A stretch of DNA of 64,000 nucleotides from an uncultured Syntrophaceae bacterium (lineage in GTDB: Bacteria; Desulfobacterota; SM23-61), in contig CAZAGD010000043.1 in the NCBI GenBank assembly GCA_964484485.1, forward strand, positions 5,660-69,659, given 5' to 3'. The position numbers and the translations under genes were made by a program. The stretch's first letter is position 1. Each line of letters begins with the position of its first letter. Under the pieces are notes generated by a model. The model searched no databases and had not been told where the DNA came from. It was given only the letters and a program-made list of their open reading frames with translations. Positions 26,688 through 54,460 of this stretch are shown in pieces.

Positions 26688-26744
26688 ATAGGACCAGGGC
26701 TTGGCCCTTGCTGGATAGCGGCCAGGGCTGAAGGTCTGCCTTAC
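26688..26744. repeat. Family B REP-like inverted pair (degenerate)
   Basis: ATAGGACCAGGGCTTGGCCCTTGCT (+) and GTAAGGCAGACCTTCAGCCCTGGCC (-), variants of GTAGGGCAAGGGCTTGACCCTTGCC. Confidence 0.55.
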
Positions 26745-26760
26745 GAAAAATATCTTTGAC

Positions 26761-26780
26761 AAAAAGTGATCGACGGTGAG
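26761..26780 (+). mobile_element. MITE family A lone terminal repeat
   Basis: AAAAAGTGATCGACGGTGAG differs by 1 nt from the copy 5 end AAAAAGTGATCGACGGTCAG; no partner end found. Confidence 0.6.
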
Positions 26781-26792
26781 TTTAAAATAATA

Positions 26793-26820
26793 TTGACATG
26801 AATTAAAAAAAAATTAAAAT
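26793..26820 (+). promoter_or_regulatory. Putative sigma70 promoter of dctPQM
   Basis: TTGACA-N16-TAAAAT. Confidence 0.5.
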
Positions 26821-26917
26821 AAGCTTTAATCTAATCTTTGGTCAATTGCTATAATTGAAATTGCTAAAGAACGAAAAAAAGACCAAGATTAAAAAAAATT
26901 AATAAAAGGAGGGGGTT

Positions 26918-27970
26918 ATGAAGAAAATATTTCTATTATTTATGGCCATATGCTTTATTTTAATCGCCGATATGGCCACAGCACAAGATCTGCCGAGGAA
27001 TCATTTCAAAGTAATTGGCTACCACAGCACCGTAGTTATGTCAATTAGAGATGAAATTCCTTTTTGGCGAGAAACTTTACCTAAAGCATCAAAAGGTGCG
27101 ATCACTGCGGATATTACACCTCTTGACCACATGGGGATAGATGACAAAACATTATTACGTTTGATACGCTTAGGCGTTATGGACTTCGCCAGCATGGATA
27201 TATCTAAGATGGCTGGTGATGATCCGCGCTTTGAGGGAGTTGACTTAGCCGGCTTAACGCTAGACCCAGTTAAAGCCCGCGCTGCCTGCGAAGCATACCG
27301 AGCTGTATTGGATAGGCAAATGCAAAAAAATTGGAATGCCAAATTATTGGTTTTTGGGGCCAATCCACCACAAGTATTTTGGTGCCGGGAAGTGATTGGT
27401 GGTCTTAAAGACCTTAAAGGAAAAAAGATTCGGGTTTTTAACCCCACGATGCGTGATTTCTTGGGTGGTATAGGAGCGACAGCCGTAAGCATGGCCTTTG
27501 CCGAAGTTGTGCCTGCGCTTAAACAAGGGGTGGTTGATTGTGCAGTTACCGGAAGTCTTTCTGGAAATACAGCGGGCTGGCCAGAAGTGACTAAGTCGCT
27601 TTACCCAATGTCCTTGGGCTGGAGCATTAATGTGACTGCTGTTAATTTAAAAACTTGGAATAGACTTGACCCACAGACGCAGAAATTCTTGCTGGAGCAA
27701 TTCAAAGCTTACGAGGAAAAAGTATGGCAAACCCATAAATTAGCCATGGAAGAAGCTGACAATTGCAATACGAATAAACAGCCATGCACATTGGGCAAAC
27801 CTGCTAACATGGTTATCGTACCCGTAAAGCCAGAGGAAGCGGAAATGCATAAGAAGCTGGTAGAGTCAGCAGTGCTTGCCGGCTGGGCCAAGCGGTGTGG
27901 TCCAGAATGCGCGGCTGAATGGAATGAAACAGTTGGTAAAGTACTTGGCCTAAAGGCCCCGATCAAATAA
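26918..27970 (+). CDS. dctP: TRAP transporter substrate-binding protein DctP
   Basis: Signal peptide; DLKGKKIRV, GATAVSMAFAEVVPALKQGVVD; upstream of dctQM. Confidence 0.9.
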   Translation: MKKIFLLFMAICFILIADMATAQDLPRNHFKVIGYHSTVVMSIRDEIPFWRETLPKASKGAITADITPLDHMGIDDKTLLRLIRLGVMDFASMDISKMAGDDPRFEGVDLAGLTLDPVKARAACEAYRAVLDRQMQKNWNAKLLVFGANPPQVFWCREVIGGLKDLKGKKIRVFNPTMRDFLGGIGATAVSMAFAEVVPALKQGVVDCAVTGSLSGNTAGWPEVTKSLYPMSLGWSINVTAVNLKTWNRLDPQTQKFLLEQFKAYEEKVWQTHKLAMEEADNCNTNKQPCTLGKPANMVIVPVKPEEAEMHKKLVESAVLAGWAKRCGPECAAEWNETVGKVLGLKAPIK

Positions 27971-28001
27971 TTAAAGGGATTAGTTACCTGGGAAGGGGAA
28001 G

Positions 28002-28598
28002 ATGGAAAAGCTAATGAGCTTGGCCACTCAATTAAGCCGCTATAGCTTGAGGTTTGGTGGAACCTTAGTTCTTCTGGCTGCTCTGCTTATTGGCGTAGAC
28101 GTGATTTTGCGCAAATTCTTTCAAAGTTCCATCGGAGGTGCCGATGAGCTTGCCGGTTATGCTTTAGCCCTCGGCACCTCTTGGTCGCTGGGAGCAACCT
28201 TGTTAGACCGCGCGCACATCCGCATCGATTCTTTATATTCCCTCTTCCCGCGGGGATTTCGTCTTTTTTTAGATTTTATTGGATTGATCCTCTTTTTAAG
28301 TTTTTTCGGCTTAGTTGCTTGGCGTGGTCTGAGTGTCATGGAGCAGTCTTGGGTTTCCTCGTCGCGAAGTCATACAGCCTTAGCTACCCCCCTGATTATT
28401 CCCCAATCAATTTGGGTCATAGGTCTCCTAATCCTCATCTTTTTGGGAATTATCCTTTTCGTGCGCGCCGCCTTGCTCGTATGGCAGGGAGAAATTGCTG
28501 CTGCCTCTCGAGCTATCAGCACCCGTGCAGCTGCTGAAGAAGTGGAAGAAGAGGTGCGCTATCTTAAGGAGCGTAAGCCTAAGAGGATGGAGTCCTGA
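28002..28598 (+). CDS. dctQ: TRAP transporter small permease DctQ
   Basis: 4 TM; DVILR, GADELAGY, HIRID. Confidence 0.88.
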   Translation: MEKLMSLATQLSRYSLRFGGTLVLLAALLIGVDVILRKFFQSSIGGADELAGYALALGTSWSLGATLLDRAHIRIDSLYSLFPRGFRLFLDFIGLILFLSFFGLVAWRGLSVMEQSWVSSSRSHTALATPLIIPQSIWVIGLLILIFLGIILFVRAALLVWQGEIAAASRAISTRAAAEEVEEEVRYLKERKPKRMES

Positions 28599-29884
28599 TG
28601 CTCGGGACAGCTTTCTTAATCCTTATTGGACTCCTTGCTTTTGCTGTGCCTGTGGCGGCTGGGCTGGGAATTTTGGGCTTGGCTTTAGAATGGATTTATT
28701 CGAAGCTGCCCCTTAATATGGCCTTAGGTGAAATCTCTTGGGCTACCTCAAATAACTTTTTGCTGGTAGCTATTCCTTTCTTTGTTTTGCTGGGTGAAAT
28801 TCTCCTTCGTTCGGGAATAGCCGAAAGAATGTACAATTCTCTTATCCTTTGGGTGCCTTGGCTGCCAGGGGGGCTCATGCATACTAATATTGTCTCCTGC
28901 GCTATGTTTGCCGCGACTTCTGGATCGAGTGTCGCTACTGCCGCTACTATCGGCACTGTCGCCCTGGGGGAAATTCAGAAGCGGGGGTATTCAGAACGCC
29001 TTTTCTTAGGAACAATTGCGGCCGGCGGTACATTGGGTATCCTTATCCCACCATCGATTAATATGATCGTTTATGGAGTGCTTACTGATACCTCGATCCC
29101 CAAATTATATCTGGCTGGTTTTATCCCAGGATTTATTTTGGCGAGCTTATTTAGTTTGACTGTCCTTATTTGTTGTCTAATTAATCCTGAATGGGGAGGC
29201 AAACCTATTCCCGCTACATGGAGGCAAAGACTTAAAGCCCTACCCGACCTTATACCGCCTATTATTATATTTATAGCAGTTATCGGTTCTATCTATGCAG
29301 GCTGGGCAACGGCTACAGAGTCAGCTGCCTTAGGAGTAATTGCTGCCTTAGCCATTGCTGCCTGGCGGCGTCTTTTGTCCATAAAAATGCTAACCCACGC
29401 CTTTGAAGGAACCATGCGGACAACGGCAATGATTATGGCAATTCTAATCGCTGCCTATTTTCTTAACTTTGTAATGGGTTCTATCGGTCTGCTTAAGAAA
29501 GTAAACGATTTTATTATGGGTCTGCAACTAACTCCCAGGCAATTACTTTTTGCTGTTATAGTTTTCTATGTCATTTTAGGCATGTTTATGGAGACTCTCT
29601 CTATGATGGTAGCTACTGTGCCAATTATTACGCCGATTATGGTAAAAATGGGGTTCGATCCTGTATGGTTTGGTGTTTTAATCGTGATCCTCATGGAAAC
29701 GGCCATGATCACCCCCCCAGTTGGTATTAACCTTTATGTGGTGCAAGGCCTGCGCAAGAGCGGACGCATCAACGATGTCATTATTGGCGCTTCCCCTTTT
29801 GTACTGGCTATGTTTGCGATAATGGCTATTATTTCATACTGGCCTGAACTTGTCCTCTGGTTGCCCAAAGTACTGGAAAGATAA
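28598..29884 (+). CDS. dctM: TRAP transporter large permease DctM
   Basis: SGSSVATAA, GGTLGILIPPS, ITPPVGINL. Confidence 0.93.
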   Translation: MLGTAFLILIGLLAFAVPVAAGLGILGLALEWIYSKLPLNMALGEISWATSNNFLLVAIPFFVLLGEILLRSGIAERMYNSLILWVPWLPGGLMHTNIVSCAMFAATSGSSVATAATIGTVALGEIQKRGYSERLFLGTIAAGGTLGILIPPSINMIVYGVLTDTSIPKLYLAGFIPGFILASLFSLTVLICCLINPEWGGKPIPATWRQRLKALPDLIPPIIIFIAVIGSIYAGWATATESAALGVIAALAIAAWRRLLSIKMLTHAFEGTMRTTAMIMAILIAAYFLNFVMGSIGLLKKVNDFIMGLQLTPRQLLFAVIVFYVILGMFMETLSMMVATVPIITPIMVKMGFDPVWFGVLIVILMETAMITPPVGINLYVVQGLRKSGRINDVIIGASPFVLAMFAIMAIISYWPELVLWLPKVLER

Positions 29885-29930
29885 AGTTGCCTAATTTTTC
29901 TTCTGCGGGCAAATCTTTTTGGTATAACCA

Positions 29931-29955
29931 ATAGGGCAAGGAACAATCCCTTGCT
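29931..29955 (+). repeat. Family B REP-like element
   Basis: ATAG-GGCAAGGA-ACAAT-CCCTTGCT hairpin. Confidence 0.55.
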
Positions 29956-30068
29956 TGGCAATGTTTAAGAATTTATCTAAATGCCATTACAATAAAGGAG
30001 AGGGAAATTTCCTACATTTTTATTAACCTAAATTAGGCGATTTTTCATTATTCATTATATCAAAGATA

Positions 30069-30184
30069 CTGGATTCTTGCCTGCTTCAGCCTGCTTCAGC
30101 CTGCTTCAGCCTGCTTCATGCTTCCGCAGGAATGACAAATATCAGCCAACGAATGAGAGTGTCATTCCCGTGAAAACGGGAATC
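30069..30184. repeat. Family C (dRS3-like) pair with internal 4 x 10-bp tandem expansion
   Basis: CTGGATTCTT-(GCCTGCTTCA)x4-TGCTTCCGCAGGAATGAC, then GTCATTCCCGTGAAAACGGGAATC (exact ATTCCC-N8-GGGAAT at 30164-30183). Confidence 0.8.
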
Positions 30185-30239
30185 TTAACGGTTTTGTCTT
30201 CATAAATGTCAAAAGAATCTCTCAGATTAGGATTAAATT

Positions 30240-31106
30240 TTATTCCTTGAAATCATATAGATTCGCTGGATTATCAGCTAATACAGCTCGGCGGATCGAT
30301 TCATTGGGTATCCATTCTAACAAAAGATCCAGAAGATCTGCCTCTTCTGGCTTATTTCCAGGTGTATGATTGGGATGAGGCCAGTTGGTAGCCCAAACTA
30401 AGCGATCAGGACGAACGGAGACTAATGCTTTAATTTTCTCGCCGACGTCTTCATAATGAGGGGGTCCTGATAAACTGGCCAAATAGGGAGCAGAAATTTT
30501 TACCCAGCATCTGCCCGTTTCCAGGAAACGGAGGAGTTCCTGAAATCCGGGATCGTTGATTCCTTTTTCAGGAGGAGTTCGCCCCACATGGTCAATAACC
30601 ACATCCACAGGGATTTTTTTCAAAATTGGAATCGCGGCGGGGAGCCAATTGCCGCGGTCTTGAATTTGGAGGTGCCACCCCAAAGGAGCAATGCGTTTGG
30701 CCATTTCTGGGACATCGCTCATGCGGAAATCATCTACTAAAAGGTAGAAACGCAGCCCCCGCATTCCGCCCTCGTGCAGCTTTCGCAATTCTGCATCACT
30801 TATATCTTTTTTGGTCACCGCCACTCCTCGTGCCCGTGCTAAACCTAATTGTTGGATAGCATCGAGAGTGCAACTATTGTCGGTGCTGTAGAGGGAAGGC
30901 TGAACAATTACACATCTTTCTATACCCAGGCGATTAAGCATTGTTTTATAAGCTTCGAGCGAAGCCAACCAATTTGTGGGCCGACGTCCTGGAAAAGGTG
31001 GATATTTATCAGCTGGACCATAAATATGGGCATGAGTATCGCAAGACCGCGGCGGCGCTATCATACGGGGTTTACGCCCTTCACCTGGAATTATTAATGG
31101 GAGCAT
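30240..31106 (-). CDS. Amidohydrolase_2 family lactonase (LigI / 2-pyrone-4,6-dicarboxylate lactonase-like)
   Basis: CDTHAHIYGP, LGIERCVIVQPS, VIDHVG, WVKISAPY, WATNWPHP. Confidence 0.75.
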   Translation of the reverse strand: MLPLIIPGEGRKPRMIAPPRSCDTHAHIYGPADKYPPFPGRRPTNWLASLEAYKTMLNRLGIERCVIVQPSLYSTDNSCTLDAIQQLGLARARGVAVTKKDISDAELRKLHEGGMRGLRFYLLVDDFRMSDVPEMAKRIAPLGWHLQIQDRGNWLPAAIPILKKIPVDVVIDHVGRTPPEKGINDPGFQELLRFLETGRCWVKISAPYLASLSGPPHYEDVGEKIKALVSVRPDRLVWATNWPHPNHTPGNKPEEADLLDLLLEWIPNESIRRAVLADNPANLYDFKE

Positions 31107-31135
31107 AAAATAAACGCCATCTTAATGCGTGGTTC

Positions 31136-31208
31136 GGCAAGCCCCAAGGGCTTGCCCTACGAGAAATTTAAAAAACCTCAAATGTAGGGCAAGGGCTTGA
31201 CCCTTGCC
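31136..31208. repeat. Family B REP doublet (REPIN-like)
   Basis: 31136-31160(-) GTAG-GGCAAGCCC-TTG-GGGCTTGCC and 31184-31208(+) GTAG-GGCAAGGG-CTTGA-CCCTTGCC; perfect stems, 23-bp spacer. Confidence 0.8.
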
Positions 31209-31374
31209 GCATTTGGTTTTATTTCTTATATGCAATTACGACCCAATTTCATTGGGGAAACTCGATAAAGCCAGACCACGGAGTAAGATAAGAGTGATAA
31301 CTGTAAATATTTAATTGCTCCGATTAATAGGTATATTTCTTTTTTAATGAAGTCCATGGTGATTCCTTCCTTTT

Positions 31375-33363
31375 TTAAGATTTTTTCTTGGCCAAATGGG
31401 CAATAAGAAAAGTAATCGAGGCTATAAAGAGTCCTAAAAGGTCGGTTTTCCATTCTGGAATGGACAAGGCTATTCCAGCAGTGAAAAAGATAATTCGCAA
31501 AGAAAAATTGATTTTACCGAGGCCGATTAAATACCCTTCAAAAGTTGACCCAATCAAAATAACTCCTAAACCAGCAGAAAGAACAGCTTGAATTACTTCT
31601 CCTGGTCCTGATTGCAAGATCAAGGCAGGGTTAAAAACGAATATAAAAGGTAATAAATAAATTACTCCACCCAAACGAGAGGCGGTATAGCCAACCTTCA
31701 AGGGAGATGTTTGGGCAATAGTTGCTGCTGGAAAAGCAGCTAAGGCAACAGGAGGGGTAATAAAAGAGATCATGCCCCAATACATGACAAAAAGGTGCAC
31801 AGCTATCTCATTCAAACCTAATTGGATCAATCCTGGCGCCAAAACTAAGGCCAAAAAAACATAACAGGCAGTGATAGTCATACCCATGCCCATAATAAAA
31901 CTGGCCAAGGCGCCTAAAAGGAGCATAAAAGCTATATTCCCTCCGGCAAAACTGACGAGCTCGCGAGCAAAACTGGCCGCTACTCCCGTGAGGGAAAGGG
32001 AGCCCATAATCATGCCAACCCCGGCTAAGATGGCTACTAACTCAGCCAGGAACTTTCCCGATGATTCAATCAACTCAAAGAATTTGCGCGCGTTGAATCT
32101 ATTTTCTCTTTTGAACATAGCCACTATAAGAAGAATAGCCATGGCGTAAAAAGGGGCTTGGCTTTCTACGCGCAAAGAAAATAAAAAATATATTAAAACA
32201 ATTAGCGAGAAAGGAAAAAACCAACCCTCCTTTAAAGTTATGGAAAGAGGAACGATTTCATTGGCTGGAATGCCGGCAATTCCTTTTCTGGCGGCAAACC
32301 CGTCCACTTGAATTAAAAGGCCAAGATAATATAACAAGGAAGGAATAGCCGCGGCTAAAGCAATCTGCGCATATGGTTTTTGCAAAAAAGCAGCCATGAC
32401 AAAGGCCGTAGCTCCCATGACTGGGGGCATTAATACCCCTCCGGTTGAAGCGCAAGCTTCAATAGCCCCAGCATAATGAGGTGGATAGCCAGTTTTTTTC
32501 ATAGCCGGAATGGTAATTGAGCCAGTAGTTATTACATTAGAAATGGCACTGCCGCTCATGGAGCCAAATAAAGCACTGGCCATTACCGCTACCTTAGCAG
32601 GACCACCTCTGGTTGACCCCAAAAGAGCAAAAGAAAAATCAAGGAAAAATTTTCCGCCTCCGGTAACTTGTAAGGCAATCCCGAATAACATAAAACCGAT
32701 TAATAAATCTCCAAAGACTTTCATAGGAATTCCTAAAATGCTGTCAACACTCAGAGAGTGAAAAGTAGCGGTAGTAACAAAAGAACGACCATGGCCCTCT
32801 AAAAAGGCAGGCATATAAGGAGCAAAAAGGGGATAAAGAGAAAAAAAGAGGATGACTATGGCTAAAGCGAGCCCAGTTGTTCTACGGACAGCTTCTATAA
32901 CTAAGGCCCAAAGGATAATAGCCATATAAGTTATTTCTTCGGGAGCAAAATAGCCCCATCCCCTTTCAATTATTGTGTAACCATAACGGGCAAAAATAGC
33001 TGGGATTATAAAAGAAATAAAGGCTAAAAAACAATCCAATAGCCATAATGATTTTGAAGAAGATCCTCTCACCAAAGGAAAATATAAGAAAACCTGGGGC
33101 ATGAATAAAGCCAAGATTAAATAGAGATAGGAATTATCCATAATCATTATTCCCCCCAGACGCAGATGATAAATCTGATAAATAGCTAAAATAATAGTCA
33201 CCAAAGAAAATAAGAAGGTAATTGACCGCAGGGGGCCAGTTAAATTTCTATATCTTGAGATAGTTACTTTGGCTTGGCTGAAATTTTGATCGTTCTTCAT
33301 TTTTCCCTTTTTCATTACATAAATTTTAGAAAAGAAAAGGGCAGCGATGATATTCACCACCAC
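31375..33363 (-). CDS. TRAP transporter fused permease (TAXI type)
   Basis: GGPAKVAV, SGSAISNV, ASTGGVLMPPVMGA, ITPPVA; true start probably the ATG at 33300. Confidence 0.92.
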   Translation of the reverse strand: MVVNIIAALFFSKIYVMKKGKMKNDQNFSQAKVTISRYRNLTGPLRSITFLFSLVTIILAIYQIYHLRLGGIMIMDNSYLYLILALFMPQVFLYFPLVRGSSSKSLWLLDCFLAFISFIIPAIFARYGYTIIERGWGYFAPEEITYMAIILWALVIEAVRRTTGLALAIVILFFSLYPLFAPYMPAFLEGHGRSFVTTATFHSLSVDSILGIPMKVFGDLLIGFMLFGIALQVTGGGKFFLDFSFALLGSTRGGPAKVAVMASALFGSMSGSAISNVITTGSITIPAMKKTGYPPHYAGAIEACASTGGVLMPPVMGATAFVMAAFLQKPYAQIALAAAIPSLLYYLGLLIQVDGFAARKGIAGIPANEIVPLSITLKEGWFFPFSLIVLIYFLFSLRVESQAPFYAMAILLIVAMFKRENRFNARKFFELIESSGKFLAELVAILAGVGMIMGSLSLTGVAASFARELVSFAGGNIAFMLLLGALASFIMGMGMTITACYVFLALVLAPGLIQLGLNEIAVHLFVMYWGMISFITPPVALAAFPAATIAQTSPLKVGYTASRLGGVIYLLPFIFVFNPALILQSGPGEVIQAVLSAGLGVILIGSTFEGYLIGLGKINFSLRIIFFTAGIALSIPEWKTDLLGLFIASITFLIAHLAKKKS

Positions 33364-33391
33364 CCTTTTATGCTAATTAATTAACCTTAAG

Positions 33392-34528
33392 CTAAAAGCC
33401 AGCAGCTTTCCTCTTCTTAAGCCAAAAATCAGGGAAATCTTTGGAGGGAATTTTCTTTTCTAAGGCTTCAGACATGACCGTATCCCATAATTTTTTTAAA
33501 TCAGCTTGTCTTTTTAAACGTTCTTTATTGAGAGCTTCTCTCTGGGACGTCCACTTACCAATTTCTTTAAGGTAACGGATAGCACCTTCATGAATAGGAA
33601 TAGGGTAATCTTCATAAAGTTCTAAGAATTTTTCCGGAGCCCAATACGCTTCTAATGATTTATGCTTAGCAGCATATACCGGGAAGGATTCATGAAGAAG
33701 CTTGGTAATTATGTAAGCTTTATCTGCCGGAAGGAAATCATAAGTCAAAGCTACTGGGTAAGGATAAGTAAGTGTCTCTAAAGGCTTGTCTGGAGATATA
33801 CCAGCGCCAATAGTTGCTTTCATTGGAGAATAATAAGGATAACTTTTTTTCAATCGAGCCCATCCTTCTTTATCTGCCAAGGGAAGAGGAACATATCTTA
33901 TCCCATAGGGCATGGCCGCCATCTCGTAGGCCGTAGAAGCTGTGGGATTGATATGAGAGGCATCAATCTTTCCTTCCATGACCATCTTCATTCCCGCAGC
34001 ATAGGTCGGAACATCCACCTTTTGTACATCTGTCCAGCTCAGGCCAGCAAAAACTAAATGAGCCTCGCTAATCATAGTCAGAGCATAAGTTGGAAAATAG
34101 GCGACCCTCTTCCCTTTTAAATCTGCTGCCGTTTTGATGACGGAATCTCCACGTATTCCCAAACACAATCCGGGATGTTGGGCTAAGTAAAGGACGCGTA
34201 CAGGTTGTGGCCCCCAATCAATGGTGGAATAATCGTATAGACCTTCTTGCATAAAATAAGAACCAATGCCGTGAAAAGCTACTTCCGCATCTTTAAGCCG
34301 GAGGGGATAAACGCGGGGAAGATCAGTCCCGGCAGGAATAACGCGCACTTTTATTTTATATTTTTCCCACAAAGATTCGCTTACAAAACCCACTTGCATA
34401 TAACCCGAGGATCCTACGTCATAAGCTGTCCAGGTCATCATCTTGGGCAGTTCCACTGCTTCGGTGTAGAAACTTAAGGCCCCCGAAAATAAAACTACCA
34501 TCAATGAGAGAAATTTTTTGACAAACAT
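33392..34528 (-). CDS. TAXI-family TRAP solute-binding protein
   Basis: Signal peptide; DVGSSGY, DWGPQPVR, DLKGKRVA, PIHEGAIRY. Confidence 0.85.
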   Translation of the reverse strand: MFVKKFLSLMVVLFSGALSFYTEAVELPKMMTWTAYDVGSSGYMQVGFVSESLWEKYKIKVRVIPAGTDLPRVYPLRLKDAEVAFHGIGSYFMQEGLYDYSTIDWGPQPVRVLYLAQHPGLCLGIRGDSVIKTAADLKGKRVAYFPTYALTMISEAHLVFAGLSWTDVQKVDVPTYAAGMKMVMEGKIDASHINPTASTAYEMAAMPYGIRYVPLPLADKEGWARLKKSYPYYSPMKATIGAGISPDKPLETLTYPYPVALTYDFLPADKAYIITKLLHESFPVYAAKHKSLEAYWAPEKFLELYEDYPIPIHEGAIRYLKEIGKWTSQREALNKERLKRQADLKKLWDTVMSEALEKKIPSKDFPDFWLKKRKAAGF

Positions 34529-34693
34529 AGATTACCTCCTTTTTGGAATTTTTTATGATGCTTTTCTTAAAAAGTGGCCAATATTACGTCTTTTGAAATT
34601 CCCCAGCCATCATGGTAGCTTTTTGCCCCTTACCAACTTTCTTTTACAAATAGTTGAACAGGCAACCTTAATCCTTTCTTTGAAATAGAAAGA

Positions 34694-34721
34694 ATTTTAA
34701 AGGCAATTATAAAAAAGTCAA
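34694..34721 (-). promoter_or_regulatory. Putative sigma70 promoter of the TAXI gene at 34528
   Basis: Minus strand TTGACT-N16-TAAAAT. Confidence 0.5.
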
Positions 34722-43047: not shown

Positions 43048-43172
43048 AATTATTACTCGGAGCAATTAAATATTTACAGTTATCACCCTCACCTTCCTCC
43101 ATGGTGATGGTCTTATCGACTTCCCCGAATGAGACTGGGTCGTAATTCGAAATAAGAAAGGAAATCAAATGA

Positions 43173-43197
43173 GGTAAGGGATAAAACCTTGCCCTCC
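43173..43197 (-). repeat. Family B REP-like element (degenerate)
   Basis: Minus strand GGAG-GGCAAGGT-TTTAT-CCCTTACC. Confidence 0.45.
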
Positions 43198-43230
43198 AAA
43201 TCTGGTCTATTGCCCATCTCGTAATTTCAT

Positions 43231-43277
43231 AACTCCCCCTTCTCCCCCTCTTACTTTAAGAGGGGGTGGGGGGGCGT
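43231..43277. repeat. Family D hairpin repeat
   Basis: AACTCCCCCTTCTCCCCCTCTTACTTTAAGAGGGGGTGGGGGGGCGTT. Confidence 0.55.
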
Positions 43278-43391
43278 TAAACCCTTGCGCCATGAATTAT
43301 ATTTAGCAAGCGGCAAGCTGAATCTGCATCAAGATGTCATTCATTTTATGCTCCCATTAACAATTCCCAAAAATTATTCTTTCTTCGGTTT

Positions 43392-46459: not shown

Positions 46460-46474
46460 ATTCGTTCCTTTCTA

Positions 46475-47551
46475 TTATAGTATTTCCAAAGGCAGCAGCA
46501 TTTCTTCCGTATAACCAAATTCACTAAGGAAACGTTGCGTAGCTTCCATATTTGGCTTCCATCCCATCTTTTCGCCGCGAAATCGAGTGGCTAAAACATA
46601 GTCGAAGATAGGGGAAAAAACTCCCATAGCCAGAAAATTTGGTTGACTACGGGGGTACCCTCCTGGCCCTTTTTCACTAGCCCAAAGGGCATCTAAAAGA
46701 CAAAGTTGCTGGCGGGGGTAAACTACTTTTCCAGTCTGCAGATCCATGGGACCCAAAATCTCTGGGGTTTTATTAATGGCCAACAAATAATCGAGGGCGC
46801 CTTCCCGATGACCGGGAGCCGGATCAAAGGTACCAAAGTGATTTTTCATAGTCATGGTAAAGCCTCCAAAAGTCTGGCTATGTCCTTTACACATGGCTAT
46901 ATTGATGAGAATATCCACATATCCGTCCACCAAAGGTTTGAGGCATTTTGCTTGTCCACGAGATTGCCGCCAGGGTTCGGGAACTTTAGTTAAAGCAGTC
47001 ACTCCTCCCCATTCATTTTCAATTTTGACGCCTGCGGGCAGGTCGGCAAAAGGTGTATTTTGGGCCATAGAGCCACCATGAATTCCATCGTAAATGTGAA
47101 TGTTCTCAGGATTTATTCGGCAGATCTTGACCAGGACGTGGCAAATTTTAGACATCACCGCGCTGCGGGTATGTTGGAGAGCAATGTTATTAGTTTTAAT
47201 GGCCACGACTGTTTCCGACCAGGATTTACGCGGTGGTTTTATGAAAATGGTTGACCAAGCTTTCTCAGGATTAGACAATTTAGTTAGAGCGCAAGCTAAT
47301 TTATCTAAGTTTTCCCAAACTACTTCTTTAACTACTAATTTTTCCTGCCAAGACCAAGAAGAAATCGGCTGCAAGTCTCTGGTCATGCGTGAGTCAATAA
47401 TGCCCACCACGCGCCGATGGTCAATATGTGGGTGAACCTGGGTACCTTTGGCCCAGTGGGCTTTAATCTCGCGGCCGTAAAGAAAAGGGGCAACAGCCGC
47501 GGAGGTAGCGATTATTGATTTTTTAAGAAAGTTGCGACGGGATATAGACAT
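46475..47551 (-). CDS. DUF362-like protein with Tat signal
   Basis: SRRNFLKK; IKTN; CKGH..GGFTMTMKNHFG; start at ATG after SD GAGGAGG. Confidence 0.65.
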   Translation of the reverse strand: MSISRRNFLKKSIIATSAAVAPFLYGREIKAHWAKGTQVHPHIDHRRVVGIIDSRMTRDLQPISSWSWQEKLVVKEVVWENLDKLACALTKLSNPEKAWSTIFIKPPRKSWSETVVAIKTNNIALQHTRSAVMSKICHVLVKICRINPENIHIYDGIHGGSMAQNTPFADLPAGVKIENEWGGVTALTKVPEPWRQSRGQAKCLKPLVDGYVDILINIAMCKGHSQTFGGFTMTMKNHFGTFDPAPGHREGALDYLLAINKTPEILGPMDLQTGKVVYPRQQLCLLDALWASEKGPGGYPRSQPNFLAMGVFSPIFDYVLATRFRGEKMGWKPNMEATQRFLSEFGYTEEMLLPLEIL

Positions 47552-47649
47552 AAAATTTTTCACCTCCTCATGATTTATTTTGACCCACTTTGGAGGTTTT
47601 CAGCAAGTTTTATTTTGTTATAATAAAAAATAAAAATAGGGGAGGGAAT

Positions 47650-48897
47650 ATGAATTTAAAAAATTTGCGGGTGAATGAGCATCGGCTACGTACATCCTTG
47701 GAAAAAATGGCGGAGATTGGCCAAACCCCCAAAGGGGGTGTACACCGCTTGGCCCTCTCGGATGAAGACCGCGAAGCCCGAAATTTGTTTGTCAATTGGC
47801 TCAAAGAATTGGGCTTAGAAATTATTATTGATGAGTTGGGAAATATATTTGGTCGCCGGCGCGGCGAACAAGACCATTTTCCTGCCGTGCTTATGGGGTC
47901 TCATTTAGACACTCAGCCGCAAGGGGGGAGGTTTGACGGAATCTTAGGAGTTTTAGGAGCTTTGGAAGTCATGCGTACCCTTCATGAAAACAAGATTAAT
48001 ACAGAGCGGCCTTTGGTCATCGTTGATTGGACCAATGAAGAAGGATCACGATTTTCCCCAGCCATGATGGGCTCGGGAGTTTGGACGGGAAAGTTGAACC
48101 GAGATTGGGTTTACAATAGAACGGATATAAAAGGAAAGAGCGTAGGGGAAGAGCTGGTCAGGATAGGTTATCGCGGTGAAAAAGAAGCTAAGAGTTTTCC
48201 GGTGCACGCTTATTTTGAATTGCACATAGAACAGGGACCCATTTTGGATAAAGAAGGCATCAAGATTGGAGTGCCGCGGGGGATCGTGGGCATAGTTTGG
48301 GCGGACCTTTTCGTGGAAGGGAGATCAAACCAAGTAGGGCCTACGCCCATGGAGGGAAGGAATGATGCCCTTTGTGCCGCGGCCGAAATGATTTTACAGG
48401 TGGAAAAATTGCCCCGAGATATGGGTGGAAATATGGTAGCTACCGTAGGAGAAATCCATAATTTACCTAATTCGCGCAATATTATTCCCGGGAAAGTGCG
48501 CTTTACAGTAGATATTCGTTCTTGGGATGATGAATTACTTAGGCGCGGAAAAGAGTATCTGCAGACCCAAGTCCAAAAAATTGCGGAGCGGCGGGGATGC
48601 GCTTTCCGCTGGGAAGATATCTGGATGATAAACCATACCCCGTTTGCGGAAGAATTGATCCAACTGGTAGAAAAGACGGCCACAGAACTGGGTTATTCTA
48701 CGAGAGAGATGGTCAGCGGCGCAGGACATGACGCCAGTTATTTAAGCCAAATAGCCCCGACCGCCATGATTTTTGTGCCCAGTATTGGGGGGCGGAGTCA
48801 TGTAGAAGTGGAAGAAACCAAGTGGGCTGACTGTGCAGCCGGAGCGAATGTCCTCTTGCATTGTGTCTTGCAAGCAGCAGCCGGAAGAGCAGAATGA
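47650..48897 (+). CDS. M20 Zn-dependent hydrolase (N-carbamoyl-amino acid / allantoate amidohydrolase family)
   Basis: GSHLDT, GG.FDG..GV, TNEEG.RF, ELHIEQGP, SGAGHDA, SH...E; start MNLKN after SD GGGGAGG. Confidence 0.88.
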   Translation: MNLKNLRVNEHRLRTSLEKMAEIGQTPKGGVHRLALSDEDREARNLFVNWLKELGLEIIIDELGNIFGRRRGEQDHFPAVLMGSHLDTQPQGGRFDGILGVLGALEVMRTLHENKINTERPLVIVDWTNEEGSRFSPAMMGSGVWTGKLNRDWVYNRTDIKGKSVGEELVRIGYRGEKEAKSFPVHAYFELHIEQGPILDKEGIKIGVPRGIVGIVWADLFVEGRSNQVGPTPMEGRNDALCAAAEMILQVEKLPRDMGGNMVATVGEIHNLPNSRNIIPGKVRFTVDIRSWDDELLRRGKEYLQTQVQKIAERRGCAFRWEDIWMINHTPFAEELIQLVEKTATELGYSTREMVSGAGHDASYLSQIAPTAMIFVPSIGGRSHVEVEETKWADCAAGANVLLHCVLQAAAGRAE

Positions 48898-48930
48898 ATT
48901 TCTGTTTTAAAAATTTTAAGAACAACACCC

Positions 48931-49222
48931 TTGACCGTCGATCAGTTTTTAAATTCCACGTTAATTCAGGCGGGAGGGAGAGAGACTCATTAAAATGAGG
49001 CACATATTCTTTCATAGGTACAGGCGGGGAAATAGACATTTATTTTAAAAGAAGGAAGCTATTATTTAAGTTTATCTGGCAGGACAAGTATGTCCCCGCC
49101 GTTCTTGGCGGAGAGAAGGTGAGTAAGAGAGGAATGGTCATTTCCCAGCCGATTTTAATTTCGCCTCTCCCCTCCCGCCTGTTTCCTGCTGGTGAGAATC
49201 ATTAAAACTGTTAGACGGTCAG
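48931..49222 (-). mobile_element. MITE family A, copy 6 (292 bp, full length)
   Basis: TTGACCGTCGATCAG...CTGTTAGACGGTCAG; flanks ACAACACCC / ATAACACCC; colinear with 24998-25291. Confidence 0.88.
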
Positions 49223-49255
49223 ATAACACCCCTAGTGATTCTCGAATTGCTTAAT

Positions 49256-49285
49256 TTGACATACCAATAATCATAGTGCTAACTT
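49256..49285 (+). promoter_or_regulatory. sigma70 promoter of miaB (possibly leaderless transcript)
   Basis: TTGACA-N18-TAACTT with extended TG; ATG starts 7 nt after the -10 hexamer; no SD. Confidence 0.5.
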
Positions 49286-49291
49286 TTAATT

Positions 49292-50626
49292 ATGCTGCCG
49301 AAAAAATTATTCCTAAAAACTTTTGGCTGCCAGATGAATGTTTATGATTCGCAAAGGATTCTGCAATTGCTCGCCCGGGAGAATTATATACTTGTTAATA
49401 ATCCGCGCGAGGCCGATTTAATTTTCTTGAATACCTGCACGGTGCGAGAAAAGCCAGCCCAAAAGGTGTATAGTATCCTGGGTCGTCTGCGGCCTTTAAA
49501 GAAAAAAAATCCGAATTTAATCATTGGAGTAGGGGGGTGCTTGGCGCAACAAGAAGGAGAAAATTTGCTGGCCAGGTTTGCCCAAGTGGATTTTGTTTTA
49601 GGGACCAAAGAATTTAACCGCCTCTTGGAAATTTTAAACATAATTGAGAAATCAAGGACGCGCCTGACGGCCACTGAGCTTAACGGCAGAATAGATCCGT
49701 ATGCCGAACTTCCTTTGGTGGGCGAACCAAATTCTGGGGCGACGGCCTTTGTGTCGATCATGCAGGGGTGCGATAATTTCTGCTCTTTCTGCATTGTCCC
49801 TTTGGTGCGAGGGCGAGAGGTTTCCCGGCCCAGCCGGGATATTTTAAAGGAAATTTCTTTATTAGCCCAAATAGGAGTTAAAGAAGTTACTTTATTAGGG
49901 CAAAATGTTAATTCTTATGGGAAAACCTCTCCTGGAGAATTAGATTTTGCAGGATTGCTTAGGGCAATTCAAGAAATCCCGGGAATAGAAAGAATTCGTT
50001 TCACTACTTCTCATCCCCGTGATCTTTCCGAGTCGCTCATCGAGTGCTTTGGTCAACTGTCCAAACTTTGTGAGCATATCCATTTGCCCTTACAATCTGG
50101 ATCTGACCGCATCCTTAAGCTAATGAACCGCGGCTATACCTTCCAGGAATACTTGCAGAAGGTTAAGAGGCTGCGCCAAGTCTGTCCCGATATAAGTATT
50201 ACCACCGACATGATCGTAGGTTTTCCCGGGGAAAAAGAAGAAGATTTTCAGGCCAGCTTAGAGGCGCTGGGTCTAATCGAGTTTGATGAGATGTTCTCTT
50301 TCAAATATGCCGATCGACCGGGGACAAAGGCCTCTTCTTTAGGTGCAAAGGTTCCCGAAGAAATTGGGGAGAGACGCTTAAGAGAATTGCAAACTTATCA
50401 AAAAAAGATTACGCAGCAAAAAAATAAAGCCTATGAAGGGAAAACCGTCCAAGTTTTAGTGGAGGGGAAGAGCAAAAATTGCCCGGAAGAAAGCACAGGA
50501 AGGACCCGGACAAATCGCATCGTTAATTTCCCAGGTATTTTTGCCCCAGGAAGGTTAGTGAATGTGAAAATAGTCCAGGCTTACGCCCACAGCTTGCGGG
50601 GAGAAGTCCAAGATCACTCCCTTTAA
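49292..50626 (+). CDS. miaB: tRNA-2-methylthio-N6-dimethylallyladenosine synthase
   Basis: TFGCQMNVYDS, NTCTVRE, QGCDNFCSFCIVP, TTSHP, C-terminal TRAM (GRTRTN). Confidence 0.96.
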   Translation: MLPKKLFLKTFGCQMNVYDSQRILQLLARENYILVNNPREADLIFLNTCTVREKPAQKVYSILGRLRPLKKKNPNLIIGVGGCLAQQEGENLLARFAQVDFVLGTKEFNRLLEILNIIEKSRTRLTATELNGRIDPYAELPLVGEPNSGATAFVSIMQGCDNFCSFCIVPLVRGREVSRPSRDILKEISLLAQIGVKEVTLLGQNVNSYGKTSPGELDFAGLLRAIQEIPGIERIRFTTSHPRDLSESLIECFGQLSKLCEHIHLPLQSGSDRILKLMNRGYTFQEYLQKVKRLRQVCPDISITTDMIVGFPGEKEEDFQASLEALGLIEFDEMFSFKYADRPGTKASSLGAKVPEEIGERRLRELQTYQKKITQQKNKAYEGKTVQVLVEGKSKNCPEESTGRTRTNRIVNFPGIFAPGRLVNVKIVQAYAHSLRGEVQDHSL

Positions 50627-50645
50627 TTAAGAAAGAGAAAAACAA

Positions 50646-51293
50646 ATGATAGATCTACATACCCACACCCTTTTTAGTGATGGAGAACTTTTACCTGCGG
50701 AATTAGTGAGAAGAGCCTTGGTTATTGGCTACCAAGCCATTGGCCTGACCGACCATGCGGACTCTTCCAATCTCGATTTAATCGTGCCTCGGCTAGTCGA
50801 GGTTTGCCGCGATTTAAATCGCTATTGGCCGATCAAAGTGATTCCTGGGGTGGAATTAACGCATTTGCCTCCAGAATTAATTGTTCCCTTAACTGGTCGG
50901 GCCAGGGCATTGGGGGCGCAAATCGTTGTAGTTCACGGTGAAACAATAGCCGAGCCTGTACCTCCAGGTACCAACCAGCAAGCTATTTTGGCCGGGGTAG
51001 ATATCTTAGCTCATCCAGGGTTAATATCTGCCGCAGAAGCGGCCTTGGCCAGAGAAAAAGGCGTTTTATTAGAAATTACTTCTCGCTCAGGGCATAGCTT
51101 AACCAATGGGCACGTGGCCCAGGTCGCTAAAGAAACAGGGGCCCATTTAATTTTAAACACTGATACCCATGCTCCTGGTGATCTCATCTCGGCCGAAAAA
51201 GCTTTGCGGGTTGTTTTGGGTGCAGGCTTGCCGGAAGATCATTTCCAAATAATGTTGGAGAATGCCCGCCGAATAATTGGCCGCGTGGGGTAG
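50646..51293 (+). CDS. PHP domain protein (histidinol-phosphatase-like)
   Basis: DLHTHT.FSDG, TDH, GVELTH, VHGET, LAHPG, NTDTH. Confidence 0.85.
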   Translation: MIDLHTHTLFSDGELLPAELVRRALVIGYQAIGLTDHADSSNLDLIVPRLVEVCRDLNRYWPIKVIPGVELTHLPPELIVPLTGRARALGAQIVVVHGETIAEPVPPGTNQQAILAGVDILAHPGLISAAEAALAREKGVLLEITSRSGHSLTNGHVAQVAKETGAHLILNTDTHAPGDLISAEKALRVVLGAGLPEDHFQIMLENARRIIGRVG

Positions 51294-51338
51294 TTTTAAA
51301 AAGAAATTTTTGCAATACCTCGGTGGAAAATATTAGCC

Positions 51339-52472
51339 TTAAAATCGAAATTCGGGCTTGATTTTGAAATCTATCATAGCCGTGTCTTTCTTTTCCCCGA
51401 TTTCTTCCATCTTGATCCGTAACCTTAAATCGTTGGCGCTGTCCGCATACGCCAGAGCATTATCGAAGTCTATAAGTTTTTTCTGGTAAAGGTCAAAGAT
51501 GGCCTGATCAAAAGTTTGCATCCCTTCCAATGTTCCTTCGGCCATAGCTTCTTTTAATTTGTCTACTTGGGCCTTATGGATCAAGTCCTTAACTCGGGGG
51601 GTATCCAAAAGAATTTCCACGGCGGCAACCCGATTGCCATTTATACTGGGAATTAAACGCTGGGAAATAATGGCCCGCAGATTTAAAGAGAGCTGTAAGT
51701 AAATTTGCTGATGCCTTTCGGGCGGGAAAAAGTTCATCACTCTCTCAATAGCCTGATTAGCATTGTTTGCATGAATGGTGGCCAAGCAGAGGTGACCAGT
51801 TTCCGCATAGTCAATGGCTGATTCCATGGTCTCGACATCGCGGATTTCCCCAATGAGGATGACATCTGGGGCCTGCCGCAAGGTATGTTTTAAAGCAGCG
51901 GCGTAACCGTGGGTATCAATACCTATCTCGCGCTGGGTAATGATGGACTTTTTATGCTCATGAATGAACTCAATGGGATCTTCGATGGTGACAATGTGTC
52001 CAGTAGCATTAGAATTTCGGTAATCAATTAAAGCGGCCAGAGTGGTTGATTTCCCTGAGCCAGTGCGACCAGCAACTAAAACCAGACCTCGTTTCGTCAT
52101 CGCAATTTCTTTAAAGATTTGGGGGAGGCCGAGGTCATCTATAGTCTTGATGTTGATTTTTATGTGGCGCATGACTAAGCCAAAGCATCCTCTTTGGCGG
52201 AAAATATTGACCCGGAAACGCCCCAGATTAGGATAGGAGATAGCTAAGTTCATCTCCCACCTTCGGGCGAAATAGGTTTTTTGGGTTTGGCTCATCAGGG
52301 ACATAGCCAATTGTTCGGTTTCTTCCGCGGTATATTTACGTGTTCCTCCGGGAACCACCACTCCTTCTACTCTATACATAGGAGGGCTGTCGACCGTAAT
52401 ATAAAGATCTGAAGCCTCTCGTCTAACCATCTCTTCCAATAATTCGCGGATATTCATAGTCATCGCCTTCAC
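51339..52472 (-). CDS. pilU: Type IV pilus retraction ATPase, PilU-like
   Basis: GRTGSGKSTT, LRQAPDVILIGEIRD, GMQTFDQAIF; lacks AIRNLIRE; immediately downstream of pilT. Confidence 0.8.
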   Translation of the reverse strand: MKAMTMNIRELLEEMVRREASDLYITVDSPPMYRVEGVVVPGGTRKYTAEETEQLAMSLMSQTQKTYFARRWEMNLAISYPNLGRFRVNIFRQRGCFGLVMRHIKINIKTIDDLGLPQIFKEIAMTKRGLVLVAGRTGSGKSTTLAALIDYRNSNATGHIVTIEDPIEFIHEHKKSIITQREIGIDTHGYAAALKHTLRQAPDVILIGEIRDVETMESAIDYAETGHLCLATIHANNANQAIERVMNFFPPERHQQIYLQLSLNLRAIISQRLIPSINGNRVAAVEILLDTPRVKDLIHKAQVDKLKEAMAEGTLEGMQTFDQAIFDLYQKKLIDFDNALAYADSANDLRLRIKMEEIGEKKDTAMIDFKIKPEFRF

Positions 52473-52476
52473 CTCC

Positions 52477-53520
52477 TTAAGTGTTAAAGATATTCGGATT
52501 GGTGGCTAAATAGAGGCATTGTTCTTTGTCTACAATACCCCGGGTTACTAAATCTTTCAAGGATTGGTCCAGGCTAATCATCCCGTACTTTTGGCCCGTT
52601 TGAATGGCGGAGGGGAGCTGAGCCACTTTCCCCTCACGGATAAGGTTGCGCACAGCGGGCGTACCGATCATTATCTCTACGGCAGGAACGAGACCCCGCC
52701 CATCCCGCCTCTTCAAAAGGACTTGAGAAATAATGGCTTGGATGGATTCGGCAAATTGGGCTCGTACCTGTTCTTGTTGATGAGCAGGAAAAACATCGAT
52801 AATGCGATCTATGGTTTTGGCCGCGCCGCTTGTATGAACTGTGGATAGGACTAAGTGGCCAGTTTCGGCGGCCGTTAGGGCTAAAGAAATGGTTTCTAAG
52901 TCCCGCATTTCACCGACCAGGATTATATCAGGGTCTTCGCGCAGAGCGCTGCGCAGCGCATTGGCAAAACTATGGGTATGAGCTCCTATCTCCCTTTGGC
53001 TGATCAAACATTTTTTAGATTCGTGCACAAATTCAATCGGATCTTCAATAGTGATAATATGCCCCCGCCAAGTATTGTTTATGATGTCAATCATGGCCGC
53101 TAGGGTGGTTGATTTACCACTACCAGTAGGGCCAGTTACTAAAATTAGGCCTTTTTCATTTTTTACCACTTCCCGCAATTGGCGCGGCAAACCAAGTTGC
53201 TCTAAGGTCATAATCTTAGAAGGAATTACGCGAAAGACTATGCTATCCCCCCGAGCCTGACGAAAAGCGTTGACCCGGTAGCGAGCTACGCCTTTTAATT
53301 CCAAAGAGAAATCTAACTCATGCATTTCTTCAAATTTTTTCCGCTGCTGGTCGTTGAGGACGTCATAGAGCATCTTGTGAATTTCTTCGCGGCTAAGAGG
53401 TGGCATTTCAATCCTTTTCATCTCCCCATGGATGCGCACCATGGGTGATTCGCCAGCACTCAGATGTAGATCAGAAGCATTCTCCTTTTGGACAAAAATT
53501 AAAAGTTCCGAAATATCCAT
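52477..53520 (-). CDS. pilT: Type IV pilus retraction ATPase PilT
   Basis: GPTGSGKSTT, LREDPDIILVGEMRD, AVRNLIRE motif. Confidence 0.93.
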   Translation of the reverse strand: MDISELLIFVQKENASDLHLSAGESPMVRIHGEMKRIEMPPLSREEIHKMLYDVLNDQQRKKFEEMHELDFSLELKGVARYRVNAFRQARGDSIVFRVIPSKIMTLEQLGLPRQLREVVKNEKGLILVTGPTGSGKSTTLAAMIDIINNTWRGHIITIEDPIEFVHESKKCLISQREIGAHTHSFANALRSALREDPDIILVGEMRDLETISLALTAAETGHLVLSTVHTSGAAKTIDRIIDVFPAHQQEQVRAQFAESIQAIISQVLLKRRDGRGLVPAVEIMIGTPAVRNLIREGKVAQLPSAIQTGQKYGMISLDQSLKDLVTRGIVDKEQCLYLATNPNIFNT

Positions 53521-53602
53521 TTTTCACCTTTCTTTCCCAATTCTTGGTTAATTAGTGACCTTAAAATTTATATGTCAAGTGTTTATACCGGACTCAAAAG
53601 AT

Positions 53603-53630
53603 TTATCGGCAAAGAAATAAAGAAACTTCA
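53603..53630 (-). promoter_or_regulatory. Putative sigma28-like promoter of pilT-pilU
   Basis: Minus strand TGAAGTTT-N12-GCCGATAA versus FliA consensus TAAAGTTT-N11-GCCGATAA. Confidence 0.55.
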
Positions 53631-53662
53631 CTCAATATCTATATTTATAGCTTACTTATTTA

Positions 53663-53687
53663 AGCCAGGGTAAAGCCCTTTCCCTAC
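53663..53687 (-). repeat. Family B REP-like element
   Basis: Minus strand GTAG-GGAAAGGG-CTTTA-CCCTGGCT. Confidence 0.6.
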
Positions 53688-53716
53688 GGGCAAATATGGA
53701 ATAAATGATGATAAAT

Positions 53717-53751
53717 TGGAATAATGGAATAATGGAATATTGGAATAATGG
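53717..53751 (+). repeat. 8-bp tandem repeat TGGAATA(A/T) x4
   Basis: TGGAATAA-TGGAATAA-TGGAATAT-TGGAATAA-TGG; related degenerate tract at ~53878-53913. Confidence 0.75.
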
Positions 53752-53921
53752 GGAAGGGAGCGAAGCGGGGAGCAAGGAGCAGGGCGCAGGGCGAATAAAA
53801 GTGCTGCAGTTGGGTAGCGGGACAATTAAAGGCCAAGCGGAAAGCGCAGCGAGTTAGTGTTGAATGTTAAAAGAAAGGGAATGATAGAATATTCGAATGG
53901 TGGAATATTGGGGTGAATCGT

Positions 53922-53994
53922 AATCCCTCCCCACCTCCCTTTAAAAAAGGGAGGATCAACTCCCCTCTTTTTTAAAGAGGGGACGGGGGAGATT
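53922..53994. repeat. Family D double hairpin
   Basis: CCTCCCTT/AAGGGAGG and CCCCTCTTT/AAAGAGGGG stems inside outer AATCCCTCCCC...GGGGAGATT. Confidence 0.7.
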
Positions 53995-54106
53995 ATAGAA
54001 CGCAGATTATCGCTGATTTTCAGGATTAAAAATAATTATTTAAAAATTTTTTCTCTATACTACATACTTGCAAACCCTTTAAATTTTATTAAGTAAAAAG
54101 ATGACT

Positions 54107-54315
54107 CTCCCAGAGCTCGCCGAGCGCCCGGAGAAAGAAATGAATAAAATTATTAAAAAATGTTAAAGAAAAAATATAGAATAACGGAAAATTGGGTTAA
54201 TATTCTCTTTATTTTTTTTCTCTTTTTGGCAAATAATTCATCTCTGTGTGCTCTGGGCCCTCTTTGGCTTATAACTAAAAATTTCTCTGCGTCCTCGGCG
54301 CCCTTGGCGGTGAAA
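54107..54315. repeat. Family E inverted repeat arms around an AT-rich spacer
   Basis: CTCCCAGAGCTCGCCGAGCGCCCGGAGAAAG facing TCTCTGTGTGCTCTGGG and TTTCTCTGCGTCCTCGGCGCCCTTGGCGGTGAAA. Confidence 0.45.
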
Positions 54316-54345
54316 CATTTTAGCATTTATGGCTGTCCGTTCTGC

Positions 54346-54460
54346 GGCAAGGGCCAAGCCTTTGCCCTACGAAACTTCGCGATAAATTTTTATTAATCTT
54401 CGGAAGGCAAGGCTTTGGGGCTGTGACCTCTTTTCAGCAGGGGATGAACCCTTGCCCTAC
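54346..54460. repeat. Family B REP cluster (2 clear copies + 1 degenerate)
   Basis: 54346-54370(-) GTAGGGCAAAGGCTTGGCCCTTGCC; 54436-54460(-) GTAGGGCAAGGGTTCATCCCCTGCT; degenerate + strand copy ~54402-54428. Confidence 0.75.

Follow-up and report, generated by a model that had tools for sequence, protein, structure and literature searches.

Repetitive extragenic palindromic (REP) sequences with a 5' GTAG tag were found in two states in a 64,000-nucleotide stretch of contig CAZAGD010000043.1 (positions 5,660 to 69,659) from an uncultured Syntrophaceae bacterium, which is called the window here and to which all coordinates refer. Most copies lie decayed in the intergenic spacers, and the only two intact units form an inward-facing dimer at the core of a 234-bp miniature inverted-repeat transposable element (MITE) flanked by TA dinucleotides. 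The reading that we consider probable is that these units are REPs of the type served by REP-associated tyrosine transposases (RAYTs), that the free copies in the window are relics, and that the intact dimer has been multiplied as the core of an IS630-like MITE.

An earlier note, made from the letters of the window alone, had read nine such units as a RAYT-REPIN system (REPIN, REP doublet forming a hairpin) in a deltaproteobacterial lineage. The association with RAYTs held, as the same REP type accompanies RAYT genes in other genomes; the picture of the window itself changed, as the clean pair turned out to be the core of a MITE and most of the other copies to be decayed. The novelty attached to the lineage was not upheld, because Di Nocera, De Gregorio and Rocco 2013 (PMC3733652) already report GTAG REPs in all divisions of the Proteobacteria, including D. 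alkenivorans, and in Cyanobacteria, Chloroflexi and the PVC group.

GTAG-tagged units of the window

The units were oriented with GTAG at the 5' end and aligned without gaps, which gave two 25-nt consensus variants. Variant a is GTAGGGCAAGGGCTTGNCCCTTGCCG (elsewhere given as GTAGGGCAAGGGCTTGNCCCTTGCC and GTAGGGCAAGGGCTTGTCCCTTGCC), and variant b is GTAGGGCAAGCCCTTGGGGCTTGCCG (the same as GTAGGGCAAGCCCTTGGGGCTTGCC), with the inner stem flipped relative to a. All nine units listed earlier were found at their positions and align to the consensus, eight of them with at most 7 mismatches and the ninth with about 9 of 25, although an exact GTAG is present in only five; GTAT, GTAA, ATAG and GGAG are found in the rest. 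When both strands of the window were searched, 8 distinct sites had 7 or fewer mismatches to a or b, compared with 0 to 0.23 in shuffled sequences (30 shuffles per threshold). The search with 12-mers gave 16 matches against 5.3 expected, a number attained by 0 shuffles. The window holds about 10 REP units in its 64 kb. Its coding fraction is 0.86, and the nine listed units all lie in the remaining 14% of non-coding DNA, so that their description as intergenic was correct.

Folding as single-stranded DNA left the GTAG unpaired. Strong folds were obtained for just 2 of 10 units, 31160(-) and 31184(+), and marginal ones for 29931 and 54370, while the remaining units were at the shuffle level. The units and the elements that carry them are as follows.

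26686-26712, plus strand: decayed REP, a-like (GTATAGG...), left half of a dimer with GTAGs outward; 5 mismatches; fold -4.0 kcal/mol, z -0.6
26721-26745, minus strand: strongly decayed REP, b-like, right half of the 26686-26745 dimer; about 9 of 25 mismatches (hand count); fold at shuffle level
29931-29957, plus strand: single REP-like hairpin with an ATAG tag, between convergent genes; 7 mismatches; -5.2 kcal/mol, z -2.3
31092-31329, no strand: 234-bp MITE (31094-31327) with its flanking TA dinucleotides; inverted ends TTAATGGGAGCA and TGCTCCGATTAA, from the inverted-end search
31136-31160, minus strand: intact REP, variant b (GTAGGGCAAGCCCTTGGGGCTTGCC), within the MITE; 0 mismatches; 9-bp stem; -11.1 kcal/mol, z -4.3
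31161-31183, no strand: 23-nt spacer of the inward-facing, tail-to-tail (TT) dimer, conserved jointly with both REPs
31184-31208, plus strand: intact REP, variant a (GTAGGGCAAGGGCTTGACCCTTGCC), within the MITE; 1 mismatch; 8-bp stem; -9.8 kcal/mol, z -3.9
43051-43362, no strand: second element of 312 bp, with ends as in the MITE and a different middle; 81% identity to MITE positions 92-238 and 89% to positions 3-37
43173-43197, minus strand: decayed REP, a-like, GGAG tag, within the second element; 5 mismatches; -4.1 kcal/mol, z -1.95
53663-53687, minus strand: decayed single REP, a-like; 5 mismatches; fold not significant
54346-54370, minus strand: REP, a-like, unit 1 of a cluster; 2 mismatches; -6.3 kcal/mol
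54404-54428, plus strand: decayed REP, b-like, middle unit of the cluster, read from the sequence and absent from the earlier list; weak fold
54436-54460, minus strand: decayed REP, a-like, last unit of the cluster; 5 mismatches; exact 12-mer GTAGGGCAAGGG; stem degraded

The inverted pairs noticed earlier are real. In the cleanest of them, 31136-31160(-)/31184-31208(+), the GTAGs point inward, and in the decayed pair 26686(+)/26745(-) they point outward; the right unit of the latter is too degraded to stand alone and is therefore credible only as the inverted partner of 26686. At 54346-54460, an inward-facing and an outward-facing dimer have the middle unit in common, and 54343-54422 is 74% identical to the dimer region of the MITE. 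The Rfam scan of the window returned two tRNAs and nothing else, indicating that the REP units are not a known RNA family. Membership of the GTAG-tagged REP superfamily is supported for the window units, with a 5' GTAG tail, a hairpin of 8-9 bp and a/b heterodimers.

The intact dimer as cargo of a MITE

The segment around the intact dimer starts with TA-TTAATGGGAGCA and finishes with TGCTCCGATTAA-TA, and these TA-bounded inverted ends define a 234-bp element with terminal inverted repeats and TA flanks. The same inverted ends, TATTAATsGGAGCA, were found at 31092/31329 and again at 43051/43362, the second element having the MITE's right arm in common and with it the degraded REP at 43173-43197. 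Of the nine listed units, three are thus MITE cargo, and the only two intact units are among these.

Proteins and DNA of the window occur at 100% identity in the Joint Genome Institute (JGI) metagenomes 3300010284 and 3300022548, and also in the hot springs metagenome runs X1 and X2. Over 31050-31420, 317 contig pieces of X1 and 183 of X2 were mapped, with sharp ends at 31089/31091 and 31329; the summed contig depth, which mixes organisms and is not a copy number, was in the thousands over the MITE compared with 15-25 in the flanks. An empty site was present in a relative (run X4), whose 9349-bp orthologous contig, from 30800, joins 31088 to 31329 via GATA and lacks 240 bp.

An outward-facing dimer matched only 20 contig pieces in X1 and 17 in X2; its REP a half reached a depth of about 6000 and its b half one of 110-275, indicating that REP a is overwhelmingly MITE cargo in the source community. 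In these source runs, the REP sequence is 20-50 times commoner as MITE cargo than as a free dimer. The metagenome depth suggests hundreds of copies of REP a, mainly inside the MITE, with the reservation that the summed depth mixes organisms. The MITE is probably the form now multiplying, and its spread is better accounted for by a transposase that recognises the inverted ends than by a RAYT; the TA flanks would make that transposase IS630-like.

The dimer also behaves as a unit outside this element. Together with its 23-nt spacer, it is 87-91% identical at five loci (L021, L055, L062, L078 and L080) of two other 'Deltaproteobacteria' metagenome-assembled genomes (MAGs). Across other MAGs, the same dimer and spacer stand in at least three different left flanks and at least three different right flanks, and one of these flank contexts is the right arm of the MITE (L010, L021).

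Two further observations concern these elements. The middle of the second element has a G/C-run hairpin at 43199-43325 (CCCCCTTCTCCCCCTCTTACTTTAAGAGGGGGTGGGGGGG), which may have been inserted where REP b and the spacer would be. In the Amidohydro_2 gene (30240-31106, minus strand), the ATG called as the start lies within the left inverted end of the MITE. The JGI annotation calls the same 288-aa product, in which the Pfam domain begins at residue 22 and the second Met is codon 15 (31062-31064); the gene probably starts further downstream, unless its first 14 codons come from the MITE. For annotation this calls for caution, as a 'clean REPIN' may be the core of a MITE and may even provide the start codon that is called for the gene next to it. 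In a scan of viral contigs for the inverted end of the MITE, there were two matches, both by chance in AT-rich phage DNA.

Association of the REP type with RAYT genes

In the usual description, REP and REPIN elements depend on a single resident RAYT and are inherited vertically. As the earlier note had stated, the window has no RAYT gene: tblastn of the window with two RAYT/Y1 queries gave no match. It had also proposed a search for a RAYT gene flanked by the same REPs, and such genes were found in other genomes. At least four REPtrons (RAYT genes with flanking REPs) are complete (L097, L110, L113 and L116), with the REP on either side of a gene of 156-166 aa that has the HUH and Tyr motifs; L111, L112, L114, L118 and L119 are partial. 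The complete ones, with an identical 25-mer including the tag, come from genomes with a GC content of 43-64%. In L097, a Saganbacteria MAG, the 156-aa gene lies between GTAGGGCAATGGCTTGTCCATTGCC and an inverted GTAGGGCAAGGGTTTATCCCTTGCC, with the GTAGs outward. A metagenome scan for an exact REP followed after 62-92 nt by the reverse complement of NPVR gave 12 loci, in 8 of which a RAYT gene homologous to that of L097 stands beside the REP.

The proteins agree with this assignment. The REPtron genes scored 97-115 bits on NF047646 (REP-associated tyrosine transposase; cut-off 80) and remained under the cut-off of the IS200 model. Their closest solved structure is 4ER8, the TnpArep of E. coli (E = 4e-18), compared with 1e-9 or weaker for IS200/IS605 structures, and the histidines at columns H69 and H71 and Y129 (the Tyr of Y..xNPVR) are invariant. 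Within the REPtrons the stem occurs as CAAGGG/CCCTTG, CAACGG/CCGTTG and CAAGGC/GCCTTG. With a pattern in which two stem pairs were left free as any G or C (S-S), 121 of 123 hits were complementary at both free pairs, in four combinations, compared with about 25% by chance, indicating that the stem is under selection.

The REPtrons found by the metagenome scan belong to lineages other than that of the window. The RAYT clade linked to this REP shows 59-80% identity among its members in Deltaproteobacteria, Brocadia/Kuenenia, WOR-3, Desantisbacteria and Saganbacteria. The protein searches gave thousands of RAYTs, and the contexts of P0028, P0099, P0064, P0090, P0127 and P0137 all belong to other lineages; P0028, P0099 and P0064 are flanked by different REP types (GTAGGGACAG..., GTAGCGGCGA...). 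P0090, from a 'Deltaproteobacteria' MAG, is flanked by the b-like GTAGGGCAAGCCTTTAGGCTTGC and lies between an M48 peptidase gene and a DUF2284 gene, and a relative 73% identical to it occupies the same position. Close RAYT relatives have other stems (GTAGGGACAGGG...) and keep the a/b architecture, which illustrates a joint diversification of the REP and the enzyme. The scan of the JGI metagenomes, a collection that includes the population of the window, found no REPtron of the window's lineage; as the pattern was strict (an exact REP and NPVR at a fixed distance), this is weak negative evidence.

Contigs of Deltaproteobacteria MAGs from different metagenomes (L124, L128 and L129) carry 73%-identical RAYTs in one slot, with the order M48 peptidase/TPR gene, RAYT, DUF2284 and GAF protein. 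Such a shared slot is consistent with long vertical residence of what would be a domesticated RAYT.

In contrast with REPIN-RAYT systems, which are described as mostly vertically inherited, the 25-mer of the window recurs across many phyla. The scan of genome contigs with the REP pattern gave at least 103 loci, none from the window's own genome among the matches listed. In gut Actinomycetota (14 hits; Eggerthellaceae L006, L027, L046, L056 and others) and in gut Bacillota (39 hits; Oscillospiraceae and relatives L007, L035, L063, L072 and others), the predominant REP among the matches listed is an identical 25-mer, GTAGGGCAAGGGCTCTGCCCTTGCC. These gut copies are mainly outward-facing dimers with spacers of 25-32 nt. 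The presence of one REP in two phyla that share a habitat suggests that the REP-RAYT pair has spread horizontally, and the distribution of the 25-mer across phyla would bear on whether such systems spread in this way, beyond this window.

Proposed explanation and alternatives

By analogy with TnpA-REP of E. coli, a RAYT, as a HUH/Y1 single-stranded DNA transposase, would bind the folded hairpin and the GTAG, and would cut and rejoin the strand beside the hairpin; it would have been the original driver of the REPs. The decayed singletons, dimers and trimer in the spacers would be relics of earlier REP insertions that turn over between close relatives. The intact inward dimer, as the core of the 234-bp MITE, and the degraded unit in the second element with the same ends would represent the second state, in which the dimer may have been captured by a MITE that would be moved by an IS630-type transposase.

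Turnover of the free copies is seen at 26467-26778, where relatives have 106-123 unrelated letters instead, and at about 15.8 kb. Over 15968-23599 the window shares 87-91% identity with a contig of 'MAG: Thermodesulfobacteriota bacterium isolate Kamch4342-D-MF-053' (the Kamchatka MAG), and upstream of 15968 this MAG has a REP where the window genome has none. A paralogous copy of 26679-26777 is present on another contig of run X4.

Several points weigh against this explanation. The depths that set the MITE apart are sums over mixed organisms. The letters at the empty-site junction are GATAA, compared with AATTA in the window genome, and because of this difference a TA duplication is inferred from the two flanks. 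Copies of the MITE that are net 46 nt shorter and have no dimer were found in runs X4 and X5, and this dimer-free form is either the ancestral core or a deletion product. Finally, the Kamchatka MAG, about 90% identical to the window, has well-kept outward heterodimers of 56-58 nt, in which a(+) and b(-) are separated by 4-6 nt, mostly with 3 or fewer mismatches per unit. These hint at RAYT activity in the genus, though the loci were fetched by an exact REP pattern, which biases them toward intact copies. The window pair 26686-26745 is a decayed version of this outward dimer.

In the shorter MITE copies, the 46 nt (31155-31200 in the window) are absent between two direct AAGGGCTTG repeats, and the copies have a single hairpin lacking GTAG, CGGCAAG...CTTGCCG. 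Taken together, the conserved dimer in differing flanks and the existence of dimer-free MITE copies favour a course in which a REPIN-like dimer became part of the MITE.

The strongest rival to relics and MITE cargo is an active RAYT-REPIN system, in which a single-copy RAYT elsewhere in the genome still copies the dimers, including that of the MITE, and the decayed units are its old tail. We give it a minor but real share of the probability. RAYT genes flanked by this REP type occur in many lineages, several outward dimers close to the consensus are present in the congeneric Kamchatka MAG, some contigs of X1 and X2 carry REP a in flanks other than those of the MITE (with about 20 pieces holding the free dimer), and the related 'Deltaproteobacteria' RAYTs occupy the conserved M48 peptidase/DUF2284 site in a manner typical of vertically kept RAYTs. 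However, all units outside MITEs are decayed in what is an unbiased 64-kb sample, the REP sequence is 20-50 times more abundant in the source runs as MITE cargo than in free dimers, and the JGI scan counts, weakly, in the same direction.

Much less likely is that the hairpins are no transposase substrates at all, but structural modules of MITEs or RNA or DNA hairpins selected by the host, with a GTAG that arose by convergence. Several units do stand at the 3' ends of genes or between genes that converge (29931, 43173), and units are embedded in larger repeated mosaics. Yet the RAYT genes of the complete REPtrons stand between copies of the identical 25-mer with its tag, convergence to at least 20 identical bases is implausible, and no T-run follows the stems; host selection for a hairpin is further disfavoured because the stem has been lost in most window copies. 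A simple terminator was also considered and rejected, as the stems have no T-runs and most are degraded.

That the hairpins are ends of IS200/IS605 insertion sequences, or of derivatives carrying TnpB or IscB, is very improbable: such ends are likewise subterminal hairpins processed by Y1 transposases, but tblastn of the window with two RAYT/Y1 queries showed no Y1 similarity, no open reading frame lies between paired units, and the REP-flanked proteins elsewhere pass the RAYT model and fail the IS200 cut-off, so that this candidate, which the earlier note had named as a possible refutation, was rejected.

Beyond the preferred explanation of relics and a MITE-borne dimer, a wider proposal seems to us doubtful at present, namely that the REP GTAGGGCAAG...CTTGCC and its RAYT clade are one lineage that crosses phyla, and that here the inward dimer was captured by an IS630-type MITE and spread without its RAYT. 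If this were true, a REPIN first driven by a domesticated Y1 transposase could pass to a DDE transposase, and could then persist after its RAYT is lost or be a substrate of both enzymes.

Relation to known elements

The window units resemble the GTAG REPs of PMC3733652, the REPs and bacterial interspersed mosaic elements (BIMEs) of E. coli, and the REPs of Stenotrophomonas and Pseudomonas in being 25-nt imperfect palindromes, extragenic, with an unpaired 5' GTAG. Head-to-head (HH) and TT dimers, heterodimers and REPtrons are already described in PMC3733652. The likeness extends to singletons, HH dimers (GTAG outside) and TT dimers (GTAG inside), clusters, heterodimers with different stems, and REPtrons. 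In contrast, the window family is not among the families named in the text of that paper, most of its window copies are decayed, and its intact TT dimer lies in a MITE.

REPINs were defined as doublet units in Pseudomonas fluorescens SBW25 (Bertels and Rainey 2011, PMC3116915). As there, the conserved unit here is an inverted doublet with its spacer, singletons resemble decayed doublets, and the associated transposase is a RAYT. The difference is that the abundance of the window doublet is tied to a carrier with terminal inverted repeats, and that the link to a RAYT comes from other genomes.

With IS630/Tc1-type MITEs, such as RUP of Streptococcus pneumoniae and Nezha of cyanobacteria, the window MITE shares a non-coding length of 234 bp, terminal inverted repeats of 12-14 bp, TA flanks, many copies and an empty site in a relative; unlike them, it has a GTAG REP heterodimer as its core. 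A further parallel is Anabaena, for which PMC3733652 describes REP dimers inside longer palindromes, that is, midway in a longer repeat with inverted ends. The sequences and the phylum are different, and the outer palindrome of Anabaena was, according to that paper, not found without REPs, whereas in the window family dimer-free carriers and carrier-free dimers both exist. The less common feature here is a GTAG heterodimer carried by a TA-flanked MITE; otherwise this is a known kind of element. It gives a documented case, in a hot-spring Thermodesulfobacteriota genome, of a REP dimer that travels mainly as cargo of another type of mobile element.

Neighbouring genes and other repeats

Genes flanking the units are of ordinary kinds and encode TRAP and TctC transporters, an amidohydrolase, a deacetylase, a PilT-like ATPase and a XerD-like recombinase. 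The 1.1-kb spacer between pilT and xerD (53521-54637) is a mosaic of several other repeat families. A TGGAATAA tandem tract and two other segments of this spacer (within 53695-53772 and 53968-54162) are highly repeated in the source metagenomes, with summed depths of 800-2900 compared with about 45 in the flanks; they belong to separate repeat families with no relation to the REPs.

Upstream of the REP pair at 26686-26745, a dispersed repeat of about 40-75 bp (26497-26580, core 26529-26566) is found in many pieces in four hot-spring runs, with a depth of up to 888 (X4). In the Kamchatka MAG, the outward dimers at L004, L008 and L094 are flanked by ccgcaaagggcaggcggcttaaaaatttt on one side and by a second common block on the other, and are thereby parts of a larger repeated unit.

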